Assembly (NCBI GenBank): GCA_016933515.1
Contig: JAFGAV010000113.1
Coordinates: 19,023-83,022 of the forward strand
DNA length: 64,000 bases
From: Candidatus Aminicenantes bacterium
GTDB taxonomy: Bacteria > Acidobacteriota > Aminicenantia > Aminicenantales > JAFGAV01
Reading direction: 5' to 3'
Shown in pieces: positions 3,981-64,000 of the stretch. Position 1 is the first letter of the stretch. Each line of letters starts with the position of its first letter. Below the pieces are notes generated by a model. That model was not told the DNA's origin. It searched no databases and was given only the letters and a program-made list of their open reading frames with translations. The position numbers and the translations under genes were made by a program.

Positions 3981-4013
3981 GCTTCTCGTCCTCCGGACGA
4001 GGAGCCTTTTTTT
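3981..4013 (+). terminator. rho-independent terminator after the gltB-like gene
   Basis: GC hairpin gcttctcgtcc/ggacgaggagc followed by a TTTTTTT run. Confidence 0.5.
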
Positions 4014-4100
4014 ATCCGCGCCAGGCGCCGAAGCCCTCTCCAGCTCCCCGATCACCGGGCCTTTTTCTTTAAGCGCCGATGTGTTATAAATGACGGCGAT

Positions 4101-4775
4101 ATGAGCGTTCTCATCATCGTCTTCCAGCTCTTCGCTCTGCTGTTCGCCATCACCATCCACGAGGCGGCGCACTCCTGGGCGGCGATGAAAAAGGGCGACC
4201 TGACGGCCTACAGCATGGGCCGCGTGTCGCTCAATCCCCTGGTTCATATCGACCTCTTCGGCACGATCATCATGCCCGTCCTGCTGGTCCTGTTCCGAAT
4301 GCCGGCCTTCGGTTGGGCCAAGCCCGTGCCCGTCAACCCCTTCAACCTGAAAAATCCCCGCCGGGACAACCTCTGGATTTCCTTCGCCGGGCCGGCGGCC
4401 AATCTCTTGGCCGCCTTCGGCTGCCTCGTGCTCATCGTCCTTCTCAAATCGCTCAGCCCCGATGCTCAGTCCTTCCTCTCAAACATCGGTCTTTCCCCGC
4501 AGCTCTCCGTTCTCAAGCCACTCGGCGGCCTGGTCCTCCTGCTCTTTTATTCCGTGCTGATCAACACCTACTTGGCCGTCTTCAACATGATCCCTGTGCC
4601 GCCCCTGGACGGTTCGGGCGTGCTCATGGGGCTGCTCCCCCCTGAGGCGGCCTCCGCATACGAAAAAATCCGCCCCTACGGCTTCCTGATCGTCATCGGC
4701 CTGATCTATCTGGGAGTGTTGGGCGTGATCATCCGTCCCATCCAGAATTTCATCATCCGCGTCGTCTTCCTATGA
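4101..4775 (+). CDS. site-2 protease family (peptidase M50) zinc metalloprotease
   Basis: Has the HEAAH zinc motif, is polytopic and hydrophobic, and has an LDGS-like motif near the C-terminus. Confidence 0.75.
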   Translation: MSVLIIVFQLFALLFAITIHEAAHSWAAMKKGDLTAYSMGRVSLNPLVHIDLFGTIIMPVLLVLFRMPAFGWAKPVPVNPFNLKNPRRDNLWISFAGPAANLLAAFGCLVLIVLLKSLSPDAQSFLSNIGLSPQLSVLKPLGGLVLLLFYSVLINTYLAVFNMIPVPPLDGSGVLMGLLPPEAASAYEKIRPYGFLIVIGLIYLGVLGVIIRPIQNFIIRVVFL

Positions 4776-16973: not shown

Positions 16974-17055
16974 AAAATCGGTTTCTCTGTCGTTTCTGTT
17001 TCTTTAAGATCAATATTTTATGACCTCTCCGCTACCCGTGGCAAGCCCTTACAAG

Positions 17056-17135
17056 CTCCATGACGCCTTGTGTGCTGAATTCCGGTCTGAGGGCCAATGC
17101 TCACGCTAAAGGACCACACAAAACGTTATGGAACC
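17056..17135 (+). repeat. Copy 1 of an ~80-bp palindromic intergenic repeat family
   Basis: ctccATGACGccttGTGTGcTGAATTCCGGTCTGAGGGCCAATGCTCACGCtaaaGGACCACACAAAACGTtATgg. It has terminal inverted arms (ATGACG..GTGTGGT / ACCACAC..CGTCAT) around a conserved core. Copies at 24.8, 32.7, 53.2 and 55.6 kb match it. Confidence 0.8.
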
Positions 17136-21694: not shown

Positions 21695-22501
21695 ATGAAC
21701 AAGCGGGCGAAGATCTTTCCCAGCCTTTGTGTCTTCATGCTGCTCTGGGCGTGGGCCGGTCCGGGACCGCTTCGGCCGGCGGCTAAAACCTACTGGCATT
21801 TCACCCTTCTGGCCAACATCAACGGCACCGCCGCCCAGGAATGGCTGTGGGCCACGATGGTCGAATTGTCCAAAGAGACGGCGTTCCCCGATGAGGCGCT
21901 CCTGGCCGAGGGGATGGGCGGCAAGCTCGAAGGCACGATCTTCGGTCAGGTCCGCGCCGCGGCCTGGAGATCGGAATACACTTACTCCTTCGACACCAAG
22001 TGCAAGGGCCGCAAGTCCAAAAAAGAGATTGCCTACAGCCAAAGCCGGAGCGATTCCGTTTTCGTCCACGGTCAGATCGTCAGGCCGCGCGATCCCGCCC
22101 ACGACATGGAATTCCGCTGGGGGGTGTGCAATCACCGGGTCTTGACGGAGGACGGCCGCTGGCGGGAGCTCGAAGACATGGCCCATGTTTTCGTCGGGCC
22201 GATCCGTGTCGAGGGCCGGGAGGCGGAGGAAATGCGCGGCGAGTTCGGAATCGACGGAGTCATTTATGACGACCAAACCCGCCGCGTCAAGCGGTGCGGC
22301 GACTCCTGGATCGAGGACTTCGATTCGGTGTTCAAGCATTTCGAGAGTCATTCCCTGAGGGACAGTTTCGAGCCCGGCGCGCGAGACGTGTTCGGCCAGC
22401 GTTTTTGGAAATTTCACGGACTCGATGTCCAATGCGTCTATTCGGTCATTCGCTCCCCGGAGCGCGCACACCCGTTTTGGAAGCAGCGGCGGATGCGCTG
22501 A
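21695..22501 (+). CDS. secreted hypothetical protein (signal peptide)
   Basis: 268 aa with an N-terminal hydrophobic signal 'IFPSLCVFMLLWAWAG'. No recognisable family. Confidence 0.5.
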   Translation: MNKRAKIFPSLCVFMLLWAWAGPGPLRPAAKTYWHFTLLANINGTAAQEWLWATMVELSKETAFPDEALLAEGMGGKLEGTIFGQVRAAAWRSEYTYSFDTKCKGRKSKKEIAYSQSRSDSVFVHGQIVRPRDPAHDMEFRWGVCNHRVLTEDGRWRELEDMAHVFVGPIRVEGREAEEMRGEFGIDGVIYDDQTRRVKRCGDSWIEDFDSVFKHFESHSLRDSFEPGARDVFGQRFWKFHGLDVQCVYSVIRSPERAHPFWKQRRMR

Positions 22502-22558
22502 CCGCGCCGCATTCCTTCCCAAGGCGACGCAATCCCTTCAAAGACGACGAGAGCATCC

Positions 22559-24658
<2,100 letters not shown>

Positions 24659-24800
24659 GTCTTTTGATGTTGCCGAGGAAGACCGGCCGGGAAGGAGAGG
24701 ACAAATCAGCGGTTATGGGGAAACAATCCGGATCTTCATGTCAAGGGCCCGCGCCGGCCGCGGAAACGAGGCGAAGCGGCCTGATGGCCCCTATTCAGAT

Positions 24801-25079
24801 GGCTCTATGACAAATTGTGTGGTGAATTTTTAAACTGAGAGCCAAGGGTCTGGGGGAGGGTTGAGGCGCCATAAGCGGTTTAGCCCGGAATCGACGGGTT
24901 TCGAAGGGTTCTGGCCTATTCTTGCCGGCCGGCTGAGCACATCTCGCGTCAGCGAGCGTATCGCGAAGCCGACTGAGAAACCCGGAGATTCCGCGGCGTG
25001 AAAAACCGCGGCCGGGCGCCGAAGCCCTCCCCCAGGCCCAAGGCTAACCCTAAAGGACCACACAATACATCATGGAGCC
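24801..25079 (+). repeat. Copy 2 of the ~80-bp repeat family, disrupted by a nested insertion
   Basis: Left arm ggctctATGACaaatTGTGTGGTGAATTtt...ctgagagccaagg. Right arm caaggctaaccctAAAGGACCACACAAtacATCATggagcc. The arms are separated by ~194 bp of unrelated sequence. Confidence 0.75.
24846..25039. mobile_element. Nested MITE-like insertion with 25-bp terminal inverted repeats
   Basis: TIRs GGGTCTGGGGGAGGGTTGAGGCGCC / GGCGCCGAAGCCCTCCCCCAGGCCC (22 of 25 complementary). Short direct repeats (CAAGG) flank both ends. There is no ORF inside. It interrupts the core of repeat copy 2. Confidence 0.55.
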
Positions 25080-25088
25080 GATTCGGAT

Positions 25089-25117
25089 TTGACATCAACG
25101 GGGAAGTCCATTACATT
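25089..25117 (+). promoter_or_regulatory. sigma70-like promoter for the cytochrome / Cyc2-like operon
   Basis: TTGACA, a 17-nt spacer, then TACATT, about 60 nt upstream of the GGAGGA RBS and ATG at 25177. Confidence 0.5.
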
Positions 25118-25176: not shown

Positions 25177-26541
25177 ATGAAAAAGGCCTGGCCCTTGATC
25201 GCCCTCGCAGCCGTTCCCTTTGTCCTGCTCCTGGCGGCCCAATCCGAACAGGCCGTCAAAGCCGGCGACGAAGCGTTGGGCACCCGGAGATACGAGGATT
25301 ACGACACGCCCCGGTTCTGCGGCACCGCCTGTCACACGGACATCTTCCAGCAGTGGACCCAATCCATGATGTCTCAGGCCTACACTCATCACTGGGACGA
25401 AATCGAATATTTCCGGCTGGCCGTGCCGCATGCCGAAAAGGATCCGGCCATGGCCCAAGCCCAGGAGGGGTGCAACGGCTGTCACGCTCCGATCGCTTTT
25501 CTGGCGGGCGACGTCCCGCCCCCTCGTCCGGAGAAGAACAGCCGGGCCAATGAGTCGGTCTCGTGCGATCTGTGTCACACCGTGACCGGCTTTTCGGGCG
25601 ACGTTCCCTTCAACTTCAATTGGATCTCGGTCCCCGGGAAAACCAAATACGGACCTCGGGGCGGGGGCGATTCCCCGGAGCACAATCTCCAGCAGTCCGC
25701 ATTTCTGGCGTCGAGCGAGTTCTGCGGAACATGCCACAACGAAAAAAGCCCCTTCGGGGCCTGGGTCAAGGCCACCCAACTGGAATTCCAGGAGGGACCT
25801 TACGCGCGGGAAGGCTTCCGATGTCACGATTGTCACATGACCTATGCCCCGGGCCGGTCGGCCGCCATGGGCAACACCTACCCCGACGTCCGCCAGCATT
25901 TGTTCCACGGAGCCCACGACCCGGGTAAAGTCAGAGGCACGGTCGAACTCCGCATCCATCCCGACATCCGCGAGGCGGAGCCGGGAGAAACCGTCAAATT
26001 CACCATCGTTCTCTTCAATCAGAAAACCGGGCACAAATTTCCCACCGGGTCCGTCGAAGACCGCATTGTCTGGATGCACGTCGAGGCCCAGGACTCAAAA
26101 GGACAGGTCCACCATTTGCCCGTCGACAAAAAGGGTTTTCCCGGCGAGGACACGACGATCGCCGGCGAGGCCCTGGCCTACCAGGACATGGGAATCCCTC
26201 TCGGCAAGCCGGATTTCCCCGGAGTCGCCCGGGACGGCGTTCCCGCCGGCGACCGCATTTTCCGCATGGCCTATTTCGACCCGCAGGGGCGCATGACGAT
26301 CCAGCAATGGAACACCAAATCCTTCGGCGTGGATTACCGCTTCGGCCCCCGGGAATCCAAGATTGAAACCTGCACCTTTTCTCTGCCCGCCTCGCTCCCC
26401 CCCGGCCCCCTGACCGTCACCGCCGCCCTGTATTATCAAAAACTGATCAAATCCATCGCCGATTTATTGAACGTCCCGGCCGAAGAGGCCGAGCCTCTCA
26501 AAGTCAACGAACATTCCACAACCGTCATGATCCTCGACTAA
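25177..26541 (+). CDS. secreted pentaheme c-type cytochrome
   Basis: Has a signal peptide and five CxxCH motifs (CGTACH, CNGCH, CDLCH, CGTCH, CHDCH) in the N-terminal half. The ~230-aa C-terminal domain is heme-free. Confidence 0.8.
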   Translation: MKKAWPLIALAAVPFVLLLAAQSEQAVKAGDEALGTRRYEDYDTPRFCGTACHTDIFQQWTQSMMSQAYTHHWDEIEYFRLAVPHAEKDPAMAQAQEGCNGCHAPIAFLAGDVPPPRPEKNSRANESVSCDLCHTVTGFSGDVPFNFNWISVPGKTKYGPRGGGDSPEHNLQQSAFLASSEFCGTCHNEKSPFGAWVKATQLEFQEGPYAREGFRCHDCHMTYAPGRSAAMGNTYPDVRQHLFHGAHDPGKVRGTVELRIHPDIREAEPGETVKFTIVLFNQKTGHKFPTGSVEDRIVWMHVEAQDSKGQVHHLPVDKKGFPGEDTTIAGEALAYQDMGIPLGKPDFPGVARDGVPAGDRIFRMAYFDPQGRMTIQQWNTKSFGVDYRFGPRESKIETCTFSLPASLPPGPLTVTAALYYQKLIKSIADLLNVPAEEAEPLKVNEHSTTVMILD

Positions 26542-32619: not shown

Positions 32620-32698
32620 CTTCGATCTTCTCTCGGCTTGGATTTTTGTGAGAGAGAATTTTATCCGAATCCTCCGTCAAAGTCAACTTGGAGGCGGC

Positions 32699-32777
32699 TT
32701 TATGACGTTTTGTGTGGTCCTTTCGCGTGAGCATTGGCCCTCAGACCGGAATTCACCACACCATTCGTCATAGAGCC
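32699..32777 (-). repeat. Copy 3 of the ~80-bp repeat family, between ffh and rpsP
   Basis: Its reverse complement is gggctctATGACGaatgGTGTGGTGAATTCCGGTCTGAGGGCCAATGCTCACGCgAAAGGACCACACAAAACGTCATa. Confidence 0.8.
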
Positions 32778-53177: not shown

Positions 53178-53255
53178 GGGCTCTATAACGCATTGTGTGG
53201 TGAATTCCAGTCTGAGGCCCAATGCTCACGCTGAAGGACCACCCAAAACGTCAGG
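53178..53255 (+). repeat. Copy 4 of the ~80-bp repeat family
   Basis: gggctctATAACGcattGTGTGGTGAATTCCAGTCTGAGGCCCAATGCTCACGCtgaAGGACCACCCAAAACGTCAgg. Confidence 0.8.
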
Positions 53256-53338
53256 AAGCCCGCGGTCCGACGGCCCGTCTTGCCTGCGCCTGCGGAGTCT
53301 GTTAAGATGATTTCCAATCGACGGGTTTGAGGATTCCC

Positions 53339-55542: not shown

Positions 55543-55600
55543 GTCGGCAAAGGACCCCTACCATACCAGAAAACCGGTCCGAGGTAAACGGAAGTCCGGC

Positions 55601-55680
55601 TCCATGACGTTTTGTGCGGTCCTTCAGCGTGAGCATTGGCCCTCAGACTGGAATCCACCACACAATGCGTCATAGAGCCC
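55601..55680 (-). repeat. Copy 5 of the ~80-bp repeat family, an inverted partner of copy 4
   Basis: Its reverse complement is gggctctATGACGcattGTGTGGTGGATTCCAGTCTGAGGGCCAATGCTCACGCtgaAGGACCGCACAAAACGTCATgga. That is about 94% identical to copy 4. Confidence 0.8.
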
Positions 55681-58214: not shown

Positions 58215-59849
58215 CTATTTCAGGGGCGCGTGATATTTTTTCCCGTCCAGGGGCGACCAGTACCCGAAGCTTTCCTCCTGGACGCGGCACCGGCCTTCGG
58301 ACGTCCAGCGGACGCCGTAGTTGTAGCCGAACCATAGGTATTCGTCCCCGCCGCCGTTCTCGGTGGTGATGATGTAACGGGCGGCGACATTCCCGATGCC
58401 CAGGGCCTTGTCCCCGGCGGGAGCGCCCTCGCCCCGGTCGCCCTTGTTGACGTCGAACGGCAGCCAGCCGTAGGGCGGCAGATAAACTTCCGTCCAGCGG
58501 TGAAAGACGTCGTCGACGCTGGCGTCGTCGCCCCGGAGGCTCACGGCCCCGACGTAGCGGATGGGAACGCCCAGGGAACGGCAGAGAGCGATCATGGCGT
58601 AGGAGTATTCGGAGCACGAGGCCGTCCCCCGACGAAGAACGGTCGGGGCGGGATTCCAGCCGCCCACGGGCTTGAGATTGTAGCTCAGGTTGTCGGCCAG
58701 GTATTCATAGATCCGCCGCACGATCCAGTACGGATTCTTCTCCTGCCCGGCGATCTTCCGGGCGAGTTCCCGGATAAAGGGATCGCTCAGCCGGTACTTG
58801 TCGCCGTCTTGAGTGTACTTCCGTCTGATGTCCGCCGGGATGTCGTCCAGGGCGCCGATCCGGTCGGGGTAAAGGAAATATTCGACCGCACAGATTTCGG
58901 CCTCCGCTCTCCAGGCCGGACGGACGACCGCGCATCCCTTGAGGTCCCGGTAGGCGAAATGGGCGATCTTCTGTCCCCAGGCATCCTCGATGATCTCGGC
59001 CGGCTCGTCGCCGAACGCGACAGGGCCGAGAAGCTTCTGGTTGTCCCGGTCCTCGGGAAGGGGCAGATAGACATCCAAGCTCGTGACCGTCCCCGGGCCG
59101 TAGTTGCGGAATTCCTTGACGAAATCGAGCGCCAGTGTCTTTTTGTCCCACTTGGTCAGGATGTTGGAATCAAAGACCCGAATCTTGTAGATTTCGTCGT
59201 TTTCGTAATCGACGCACCACAGGGCGTCGCCTCCCCAAGCCATCCCGGAAGGAAACGGGCCGTAAGAGCGAAGCGAGGAGAGATAGAGGCCGTCCGCGGG
59301 ATTGAGGAGGTAGACGCGGTCTGCGCCCCTGTCGGCGACCCAAAGGTATTTTCCGTCGAAGGTCAGGCCCGTGGGCTCGCCGGAGGGCGCGCCGACGGTC
59401 TGGACCATCATCCCGTCCACGGTCGAGACCTTGATCAGGATGTCGCTCCGGAAATCGGCGATCCAGACGTATTCGCCGTCGAAAGCCAGGTCGCGGGGGC
59501 TGGGGCTGTTCGATTCGAGGACGGAAAGGGCTTTCCCCGTCTCGGGATCGAGCTTGTACATCAGCCTCTCCCCCGAATCGACGTGCCAGAGATGACGGCC
59601 GTCCCAGGCCAATCCTTCGGGGTGATGGCCCGGAGCGTCGAAGCTCCGGAGCGTCTCGCCGGTCTCGGGGTCGATCTTGTAAATCTTGTCCGTAAAATCC
59701 TCCGCCAGCCAGAGATGCTGTCCGTCGAAAGCCAGGCCGGTCGGGCGCGGCCCCGGCGTCTTGATGACCTTGAGCACATCGCCGACCGTTCCCCAGGAGA
59801 GGGCGGCGCAGAATACGATAAGGCAGAGACAAAAACCCAATTTTTTCAT
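58215..59849 (-). CDS. secreted beta-propeller (glutaminyl-cyclase-like repeats) plus transglutaminase-like cysteine protease domain protein
   Basis: Has a signal peptide, five 'G(L/M)A(F/W)DG..LW..D' blades, and a C-terminal 'GTASCSEYSYAMIALCRSLGVPIRYV' transglutaminase core. An AAGGAG RBS sits 7 nt upstream of the ATG at 59849. Confidence 0.7.
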   Translation of the reverse strand: MKKLGFCLCLIVFCAALSWGTVGDVLKVIKTPGPRPTGLAFDGQHLWLAEDFTDKIYKIDPETGETLRSFDAPGHHPEGLAWDGRHLWHVDSGERLMYKLDPETGKALSVLESNSPSPRDLAFDGEYVWIADFRSDILIKVSTVDGMMVQTVGAPSGEPTGLTFDGKYLWVADRGADRVYLLNPADGLYLSSLRSYGPFPSGMAWGGDALWCVDYENDEIYKIRVFDSNILTKWDKKTLALDFVKEFRNYGPGTVTSLDVYLPLPEDRDNQKLLGPVAFGDEPAEIIEDAWGQKIAHFAYRDLKGCAVVRPAWRAEAEICAVEYFLYPDRIGALDDIPADIRRKYTQDGDKYRLSDPFIRELARKIAGQEKNPYWIVRRIYEYLADNLSYNLKPVGGWNPAPTVLRRGTASCSEYSYAMIALCRSLGVPIRYVGAVSLRGDDASVDDVFHRWTEVYLPPYGWLPFDVNKGDRGEGAPAGDKALGIGNVAARYIITTENGGGDEYLWFGYNYGVRWTSEGRCRVQEESFGYWSPLDGKKYHAPLK

Positions 59850-63252: not shown

Positions 63253-64000
63253 CCGTCCGCTCGGCCGTCGATCTCTCCGTCGACCTGGGATTCCTGCGCC
63301 TCAAGAATCCCGTCCTGGCCGCTTCGGGCACATTCGGCTACGGCCCGGAATTCGAGCCGTTCCTCGATCCCGGCCGTCTGGGCGGATTCGTGGTCAAAGG
63401 CCTGCATTTCGATCCCCGGCCCGGCAATCCCCCTCCCCGACTGGCGGAAACCCCTTCGGGCCTCATCAACGCCGTCGGACTCCAGGGCGTCGGCGTCGCC
63501 TCTTTCTGCGAAAAAACCCTCCCCCGCCTGCGCGGCTATAAGACGGCGGTCATCGTCAATGTCTGCGGCGCGGATACGGAGGAGTATGTCCGCGTCGTCG
63601 AATATCTGGACGGGCACGAGGGCATCGCCGCCTACGAGCTCAACATCTCCTGCCCCAACGTCAAGGCCGGCGGCGCCTGCCCGGCTCAGAGCCCCGCCGC
63701 GACCCGCAAGGTCGTCGCCGCAGTCAAGAAGCGCTCGCGCCGGCCGGTCATCACCAAGCTCTCGCCCAACGTCACCGACGTGGCGGCCGTCGCCGCCGCA
63801 GCCGAGGAGGCCGGCACGGATGCGGTGTCCCTGGTCAACACGTTCCTGGCCATGGCCGTCGACGTCGAAACGCGCCGGCCGAAAGTGGCCAACGTCTACG
63901 GCGGGCTGAGCGGCCCGGCCATCCGCCCCATCGCCCTGCGGATGGTCCATCAGACCGCCTCGCGGGTCCGGATCCCCGTCATCGGGCTGGGAGGTATCGC
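63249..64000 (+). CDS. pyrD: dihydroorotate dehydrogenase catalytic subunit (class 1B), 3'-partial
   Basis: ATG at 63249 overlaps the pyrK stop. Has 'LKNPVLAASGTFGYG', 'NISCPNV' and 'VKLSPN' motifs. It runs off the window end. Confidence 0.85.
   Translation, partial: MTVRSAVDLSVDLGFLRLKNPVLAASGTFGYGPEFEPFLDPGRLGGFVVKGLHFDPRPGNPPPRLAETPSGLINAVGLQGVGVASFCEKTLPRLRGYKTAVIVNVCGADTEEYVRVVEYLDGHEGIAAYELNISCPNVKAGGACPAQSPAATRKVVAAVKKRSRRPVITKLSPNVTDVAAVAAAAEEAGTDAVSLVNTFLAMAVDVETRRPKVANVYGGLSGPAIRPIALRMVHQTASRVRIPVIGLGGI

Follow-up and report, generated by a model that had tools for sequence, protein, structure and literature searches.

A conserved hairpin module within a probable long-form miniature transposable element of Aminicenantes

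The subject of this analysis is a 279-bp sequence at positions 24801-25079 of a 64,000-nucleotide stretch of contig JAFGAV010000113.1 (the 64-kb window), which comes from a Candidatus Aminicenantes bacterium, a member of a phylum that to our knowledge is known from metagenomes only. The sequence, a composite of inverted repeats within inverted repeats, is probably one non-autonomous element bounded by terminal inverted repeats (TIRs). It would be the long form of an 82-bp MITE, a miniature transposable element with inverted repeats, and it would carry a structured module maintained by selection. Comparison with an empty site shows that the whole composite was inserted as a single unit, with a 9-bp target-site duplication like those of the four solo 82-bp copies in the window. 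Its centre of about 190 nt is a conserved module whose predicted fold has about 69 base pairs in one long hairpin, with a three-way junction at its tip. The first-pass annotation of this DNA had taken the arrangement for a second, distinct MITE that had transposed into a copy of the 82-bp repeat. The nested appearance is no evidence for a recent second transposition. Where one MITE seems to lie within another, the two can belong to one old mobile unit, and to take such a layout as proof that transposition was recent would mislead.

Elements of this kind are already known, as MITEs with long and short forms and with a hairpin at the RNA level; what is new is a conserved structured core without a known family. 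Selection inside a bacterial MITE is rare, and here it would extend across genera, making the centre a candidate structured RNA of about 190 nt without an Rfam family. The pair of long and short forms can also be used for asking how MITE families originate.

Insertion of the composite as a single unit

Two contigs of a sister lineage (L090 and L091), the closest relative sampled, were reached via the DUF255 protein encoded upstream of the element. For about 14 kb they run colinear with the window, with a nucleotide identity of 86-88%, and the cytochrome encoded downstream is 91% identical in amino acid sequence. The spacer between the DUF255 and cytochrome genes measures 188 bp in both contigs, versus 518 bp in the window. 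Both contigs hold a single CCCCCTATTAGAT directly before TTGACA and read ..CCCCCTATTAGAT followed by TTGACATCAGGG... When 288 bp are deleted from the window, namely the 279-bp composite and one 9-bp duplication, it realigns exactly, as ..CCCCTATT(C)AGAT joined to TTGACATCA... Since colinearity is regained by this removal, the composite was inserted as one unit, and its insertion postdates the split from this relative. The first-pass annotation had looked ahead to an empty site with a single CAAGG in a related genome. An empty site exists, but it lacks the whole composite and retains a single 9-bp target.

A second presence/absence polymorphism is found at the solo copy at 32696-32777, which together with about 47 adjacent nt is missing at L090 19787-19791. 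The two empty sites, that of the composite and that of this solo copy, directly demonstrate the mobility of the family. The annotation had argued for mobility from the nesting; the conclusion stands on the empty sites, and the nesting as such does not support it.

The outer family is a genuine MITE. Its TIRs pair GGCTCTATGACGCATTGTGTGGT with ACCACACAAAACGTCATGGAGCC, both forms (82 and 279 bp) are non-coding, and the flanking duplication has a fixed length of 9 bp at five of five copies. The duplications match at 9/9, 9/9, 8/9, 7/9 and 7/9 positions, the composite being one of the two at 7/9, with a chance probability of 4e-6 to 1e-3 per copy. Besides the composite, four further copies lie in the window, where shuffled sequences lead one to expect 0; the five copies in 64 kb are four short and one long, the long form being single. 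The composite is among the older insertions here, because its duplication copies differ at two of nine positions and its arms share only 83% identity with the family consensus, versus 91-95% for the solo copies. Its outer stem has acquired three mismatches while the core is intact.

No transposase gene lies near any copy in the window or beside any homologue of the centre. A scan of viral contigs for the terminal repeat gave one chance hit, the other viral-contig scans gave chance matches only, and plasmid and phage collections gave no match. The 9-bp duplications presumably fit enzymes of the IS1, IS4 or IS903 type. The element would be moved in trans by a transposase that produces 9-bp duplications, and the parent insertion sequence would end in GGCTCTATGAC..GTCATAGAGCC.

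Conservation and predicted fold of the centre

The composite consists of two nested inverted repeats (Table 1). The outer arms (24801-24823, GGCTCTATGACAAATTGTGTGGT, and 25057-25079, ACCACACAATACATCATGGAGCC) are 23 nt long and 83% complementary. The inner repeat (24846-24870 and 25015-25039) is complementary at 21 of 25 positions and extends to 31 nt at 81%. The first-pass annotation had described it as a pair of 25-bp TIRs; the inverted repeat is real, but the pairing continues beyond it, and its sequence varies between homologues with compensatory changes, as a helix does. In alignment with the 82-bp family, the left part of the interrupted copy runs to ..GAGAGCCAAGG and the right part restarts at CCAAGGCTAACC.., such that both family arms are retained, as the annotation had stated. 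The CAAGG that it had seen at both junctions belongs to a shared hexamer, CCAAGG (24842-24847 and 25038-25043). The insert-like centre is therefore 190 bp long, and not the roughly 194 bp first given.

The internal hairpins that had been reported are parts of a larger structure. The 279 nt have a predicted folding energy of -160.9 kcal/mol versus -99.3±4.9 in shuffled sequences (z = -12.7), and the predicted pairing spans nearly the whole insert, beyond the 25-nt ends, as one long hairpin with a three-way junction at the tip. The earlier statement that the insert has no open reading frame was effectively right. A search of 5.8 billion proteins with the only frame, of 77 codons on the minus strand (24830-25063), was also meant to reveal homologous loci and found no homologue; no reading frame or start codon is conserved across the homologues of the centre. 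A small peptide encoded by the core was considered and rejected, as its ATG is ATA in three homologues and the stop codons differ.

Table 1. Features of the composite, the solo copies of the 82-bp family and the adjacent promoter-like site, in window positions.
Feature	Positions	Strand	Remarks
Composite, whole	24801-25079	+	279 bp; probable long form in the 82-bp MITE family
Left copy of the 9-bp target-site duplication, TATTCAGAT	24792-24800	+	7/9 versus 25080-25088; P about 1e-3
Outer left part: MITE TIR (24801-24828, GGCTCTATGACAAATTGTGTGGTGAATT) and spacer with homology to the 82-bp family's interior	24801-24841	+	
Left CCAAGG	24842-24847	+	Putative inner duplication in the first-pass annotation; the inner hairpin's purine-rich base is more likely
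Closing stem, 5' arm (helices 1-2)	24845-24870	+	Includes the 25-nt left inner repeat, 24846-24870
Conserved core, 5' strand, CATAAGCGGTTTAGCCCGGAATCGACGGGTTTCGAAGGG	24871-24909	+	94% mean pairwise identity among five homologues of different lineages
Apical three-way junction and two variable hairpins	24910-24972	+	69% identity; compensatory changes
Conserved core, 3' strand, ..CTGAGAAACCCGGAGATTCCGCGGCGTGAAAAACCGCGGCCGG	24973-25014	+	88% mean pairwise identity; predicted to pair with 24871-24909
Closing stem, 3' arm	25015-25040	+	Includes the right inner repeat, 25015-25039
Right CCAAGG	25038-25043	+	Corresponds to CCAATG in the 82-bp family; CCAATG also in L086
Outer right part: spacer and MITE right TIR, ..AAAGGACCACACAATACATCATGGAGCC	25044-25079	+	
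Right copy of the 9-bp target-site duplication, GATTCGGAT	25080-25088	+	Flush against the cytochrome -35 box
Solo 82-bp copy	17054-17135	+	Target duplication GCCCTTACA / GCCCGTGCA
Solo 82-bp copy	32696-32777	-	Target duplication 8/9; missing from the colinear relative L090
Solo 82-bp copy	53179-53260	+	Perfect 9-bp target duplication, CGCGGTCCG
Solo 82-bp copy	55598-55679	-	Perfect 9-bp target duplication, GGACTTCCG
Multihaem cytochrome operon, promoter-like site TTGACA-17-TACATT	25089-25117	+	Context, outside the element

Seven independent homologues of the centre were found in Aminicenantes-type genomes and in metagenomes, with E values of 1e-31 to 1e-60: L086, L063 (identical to L056), L066, L081, L079, L046 and L028. 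L046 and L028 were recovered by scanning a genome collection with a closing-arm pattern, the others by scanning metagenomes with the conserved core block. The closing-arm scan gave 46 single matches, which is about chance level, and only these two were real homologues. Each of the seven is single-copy and occupies a different locus. L046 and L028 lie between a glycosyltransferase gene and asd, L063 and L086 near Ser/Thr kinase genes, and L081 in front of a tRNA gene. The L066 copy (L066 3264-3520) is flanked by pyrD and pyrF, with the start codon of pyrF inside the remnant of its outer right arm, GATCATGAGCC. The tRNA gene beside L081 (1030-1101, 67 bits) follows the element directly and has its own promoter-like TTGACA..TAATAT.

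The homology reaches into the MITE arms. Both outer arms are intact in L086 and L063, and the left arm is present in L079, L046 and L028 (GGCTCTATGACGAATTGTGTGGT / GCTTTATGACAAATTGTGTAGT). The arms of L066 are degenerate but still paired through compensatory changes (TTGGCGA / TCGCCAA). The left arm of L081 is doubtful, such that an outer left arm is recognisable in six of the seven homologues. As the homology extends into the arms, the nested layout is old and shared, and alignment of the loci points away from a local event.

Divergence is unequal along the element. The two core strands have identities of 94% and 88% among five full-length homologues, versus 75-78% in the closing stem and 69% at the apex; the 5' core strand is near-invariant in seven sequences. 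The spacers between arms and centre are unalignable, except between the window and L086. Given that arms, spacers and centre share the same age, this unequal divergence implies constraint on the core, and the centre appears to be under selection. The variation that does occur tends to preserve pairing. In the 5' closing arm the sequence varies (mean identity 78%) and pairing is kept by compensatory changes. For the five sequences, the RNAalifold consensus comprises 69 pairs, and 91.3% of cells pair in it. Both sides have changed at nine pairs, versus 4.1±1.6 in shuffled alignments, of which 1 in 500 reaches nine, and 0-2 in slid controls. Examples are CUGGC/GCCGG versus CUGAC/GUCGG, and an apical hairpin that takes the forms CUCGC-GUCA-GCGAG, GCUUCC-GCA-GGAAGC and GCCUCC-GGA-GGAGGC. 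A change from U-A to C-G at alignment columns 42 and 170 favours the long-range helix over a local CCGCGG hairpin.

Several observations concern the strand. The fold of the plus-strand RNA is predicted to be more stable than that of its complement in all five full-length homologues, by 2.6-25.4 kcal/mol, and the plus strand has 21 G·U cells versus 12 A·C cells. Where the annotation is usable, at five loci, element and downstream gene share one orientation. This strand bias hints at a role at the RNA level on the plus strand but is not proof of one. On the structural model, the module most likely acts as a plus-strand RNA, a very stable rod-like stem-loop, which would be transcribed with or into neighbouring genes. 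Plausible roles are in processing, in stability or as a barrier, by analogy with the effects of RNase III or RNase E processing that are documented for Correia and enterobacterial repetitive intergenic consensus (ERIC) elements (PMC10969869).

The compensatory changes are equally compatible with hairpins formed by DNA, and both core strands are almost invariant, beyond what pairing alone would need. The palindrome might therefore act as DNA, by forming a cruciform or a single-strand hairpin or by serving as a site for protein binding, for example a structure recognised by a recombinase or in replication. That assemblies break at the hairpin is also in keeping with such a role, which is nevertheless very improbable. 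None of the copies has a gene for a recombinase, a transposase or an HUH-type enzyme (single-strand DNA nuclease) beside it, the solo 82-bp form transposes without the core, and both the stability advantage of the plus strand and the orientation bias toward downstream genes point to RNA.

Two homologues contain further small hairpins. A third hairpin of about 87-90 nt, with termini GCCGGAGACAsCT / AGsTGTCTCCGG, occurs in L086 (560-646) and L028 (4232-4321) and is missing from the window. It lies inside the conserved core at differing positions: in L086 it replaces the apical hairpins, and in L028 it splits the core between GCCGGAGA and TTCCGCGG. This hairpin, too, may be a small mobile one, with the element as its target.

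Long form, short form and the origin of the nesting

The first-pass annotation had interpreted CAAGG as a target-site duplication made by the centre. The homologues do not bear this out. L086 has TTAAGG at one junction and CCAATG at the other, a match at three of six positions, versus CCAAGG at both junctions in the window, and yet its arms reach 95% and 97.6% identity with the 82-bp consensus. A direct repeat is lacking from the other homologues, where the stem continues across the boundary (AGAGGG/CCCTCT and similar). In alignment, the left CAAGG corresponds in all homologues to a purine-rich ..RAGG at the base of the hairpin (..AGAGG or ..AAAGG). CCAAGG is a near-palindrome (CCWWGG) inside the extended stem, where AGCC-AA-GGG would pair with CCC-AA-GGCU, and a direct repeat therefore requires only that the central dinucleotides match. 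Judged by these alignments, the CCAAGG duplication is not reproduced at the homologues, a result that the first-pass annotation had itself named as counting against its reading.

The centre could still be an independent MITE with its own TIRs, if it was inserted into the loop of an 82-bp copy with duplication of CCAAGG in a distant ancestor and the composite then spread. Much of the architecture in the window agrees with such an origin: a 25-nt inverted repeat bounds the insert, the same hexamer stands at both junctions, and when the insert and one CCAAGG are removed, the remaining 83-nt element aligns end to end with the 82-nt consensus, with 69 of 83 columns identical. The right-hand homology to the short form begins as early as AGGCCCAAGG, where the direct-repeat family D2 aligns from 25034, and this forms an 8/10 direct repeat with AGAGCCAAGG on the left. 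Other small hairpins have landed inside the element in L028 and L086, so insertion of a hairpin into a hairpin does occur. We nonetheless consider this origin unlikely, though a serious rival. A recent local event is excluded, since the empty site misses the whole composite. At eight independent loci the core is never clearly free of the arms and never multicopy; no second copy of the inner repeat or core occurs in the window, and the lack of further copies, which the first-pass annotation had named among the results that would refute it, is thus largely borne out. The stem crosses the supposed boundary in every homologue, and the core shows covariation and uneven rates of the kind that selection would leave. 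In L086, with its near-consensus arms, a young duplication ought to have stayed intact, and it has not. Finally, the L086 arms fall within the diversity of the short form and those of the window composite are 17% diverged from it, which would be unexpected under one shared ancient nesting.

The distribution of the two forms bears on the direction of change. Solo short copies number four in the 64-kb window and zero in about 120 kb of other Aminicenantes loci, a comparison that includes 22 kb of the sister lineage; composites occur across lineages, and short copies only in the window. The short-form consensus corresponds to the two outer parts of L086 (95% and 97.6% identity), joined between consensus positions 40 and 41 with no duplication. 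It differs by 4% from the arms of the L086 composite and by 17% from those of the window composite. These distances favour deletion from an L086-like composite followed by amplification here, and fit a single ancient nesting less well. The 82-bp repeats would thus be an internally deleted short form of the composite, amplified in this lineage.

A further step would be to regard the core as a new class of structured non-coding RNA of Aminicenantes, with one functional copy per genome that is relocated by its MITE arms, and the 82-bp family as born by loss of the core. This extension is tentative, and we think it more doubtful than the description of the composite as a long-form element. If it is true, it would be a bacterial parallel to repeat families derived from RNA genes.

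A number of points weigh against a long-form MITE with a selected RNA-level module. The covariation is suggestive rather than statistically conclusive, coming from five full-length and three partial homologues, and the conservation of the core block is partly a matter of ascertainment, as the metagenomes were searched with that block. Only the window and L079 have a sigma-70-like promoter in their left arm, and no terminator was found after the element. The two identical CCAAGG words on either side of the centre of the window copy have the expected look of a real target duplication, and a clean indel by itself is no test of deletion versus insertion. The single-copy count was made in the 64-kb window, and further copies may be present elsewhere in the source genome. 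The end of the window (63261-64000) lies inside the orthologue of pyrD, the gene that flanks the L066 copy, and a second copy just beyond it is possible. The complete 3.18-Mb Aminicenantes chromosome that is the source of L028 contains the closing-arm pattern once, a single-copy claim that rests on one 21-nt pattern. Moreover, the module is dispensable at least sometimes, being disrupted in L028, L086 and L079. L079 is truncated, and in L086 the apex is replaced by a different hairpin of about 87 nt. L028 has an insertion of about 150 nt in the invariant 5' core (3990-4140), and opposite it across the helix an insertion of about 89 nt in the 3' strand. L046 (7249-7348), which is 96% identical to L028 over the locus, lacks both insertions; they are therefore recent, and the L028 core may be inactivated.

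Operon setting and comparison with known systems

The proteins encoded around the element mark the DNA as that of a Candidatus Aminicenantes metagenome-assembled genome. The element lies downstream of the DUF255/thioredoxin gene (22559-24658) and ends 9 bp before the promoter-like site of the cytochrome operon, immediately upstream of it as the first-pass annotation had placed it. The downstream gene (25177-26541) encodes a 454-aa protein with five CxxCH motifs and weak Pfam matches to Cytochrome_C554/C7. By these motifs it is a multihaem cytochrome c, and not the Cyc2-like cytochrome that had been named. A conserved 392-aa protein without a Pfam family is encoded after it. The promoter-like site is kept in the element-free loci L090, L002, L003 and L004. 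Insertion flush with the -35 box replaces the AT-rich upstream DNA of the relative and may alter expression of the respiratory gene cluster. The element itself contains a weak promoter-like site in its left arm (ATGACA-18-TAAACT, 24807-24836), which is not kept in most homologues.

Some further observations concern neighbouring sequences. The cytochrome loci L003-L006 were rejected as empty sites, as their synteny differs (LPG_synthase_C lies upstream). An LPG_synthase_C gene also stands between the 268-aa gene and DUF255 in L090 (8972-9928), L091 and L092, and is missing at window 22501-22559. A likeness of L002 to the right closing arm was likewise rejected, as 74 of 2000 shuffles equal it (p about 0.04) and better chance matches occur elsewhere in the window. 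L001, a Logan contig from the same organism, begins at window position 25016, in the 3' closing arm of the hairpin. Both it and L002, a JGI contig from a relative with a cytochrome 83% identical, end 161 nt upstream of the cytochrome ATG, and the shared ends probably reflect an assembly break at the long hairpin. Elsewhere in the window (59332-59746), a direct repeat of 46 nt occurs three times in diverged form, at spacings of 123 and 246 nt; it is probably a protein domain repeated within a gene, unrelated to the element.

Our literature search returned nothing specific on non-coding RNAs of Aminicenantes or on nested bacterial MITEs, and comparison must be made with systems of other kinds. 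The 6S RNA (SsrS) resembles the centre in its length of about 190 nt, rod-like fold, single copy per genome and variable gene context. Together with the conserved core and the more stable plus-strand folds, this raises the prospect that the centre is a chromosomal housekeeping RNA gene, for instance of a divergent rod-like 6S type, with MITE arms that are incidental or that captured it. We take the E. coli ssrS gene to share the short words GGUGAGCAUG, CCGAGAA.GCC and GGAGAUUCC with the L046 version, which is a lead rather than a test. Such an origin is improbable. Rfam 15 gave no gathering-score match in the window. With lax filters and E up to 10, three homologues (window region, L046 and L081) gave noise, with no match to 6S, SRP, HEARO or ribozyme families; the sole true match was the tRNA beside L081. 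The predicted helices are continuous, and 6S RNA requires an open central bubble. The module is also rare, with only six loci in the JGI metagenome collection versus thousands of Aminicenantes homologues of the neighbouring cytochrome, and it is disrupted or truncated at three loci. Unlike a housekeeping gene, it is missing from the orthologous site of the sister lineage and has moved as a transposon with target duplication.

Structured modules of about 180-200 nt inside transposable elements are also found as the omega-RNA or HEARO RNA of IS200/IS605-IscB/TnpB elements and as the bridge RNA of IS110. In contrast to those elements, no TnpB, IscB or IS110 recombinase gene is adjacent here, and the composite has TIRs and a target duplication, both of which the omega-RNA and IS110 families lack; Rfam gave no match to HEARO or to any other family.

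Nested MITEs are well described in plants. The composite resembles them in its inverted repeats within inverted repeats and in the family-length outer element that is restored when the inner part is removed. It differs in that the inner part belongs to no repeat family, the junction duplication is not reproducible, and the nesting has been inherited and mobilised as a unit. An internal module of another type, a minisatellite, is found in the BrickBuilt MITE of Porphyromonas gingivalis (PMC4596501).

The closest parallels are the Correia elements of Neisseria, ERIC, RUP and the QMITE1/2 elements of Coxiella, which are MITEs with a direct repeat-TIR-core organisation that fold into long hairpins (PMC10969869; PMC5896051). 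Like them, the element described here is small and non-coding, has TIRs of about 25 bp and a fixed target duplication, lies between genes and next to a promoter, and is predicted to form one stable hairpin. Correia elements occur in 150-nt and about 105-nt forms, and ERIC in insertion and deletion variants; as in those families, the long and short forms here are related by an internal indel. The duplication measures 9 bp, unlike the TA of Correia, and no parent insertion sequence is known for this element. Unlike in these families, the long form is single-copy per genome and common to divergent lineages. Copies of a MITE usually decay uniformly; in this element the centre is much better conserved than the arms and spacers, and it shows covariation.

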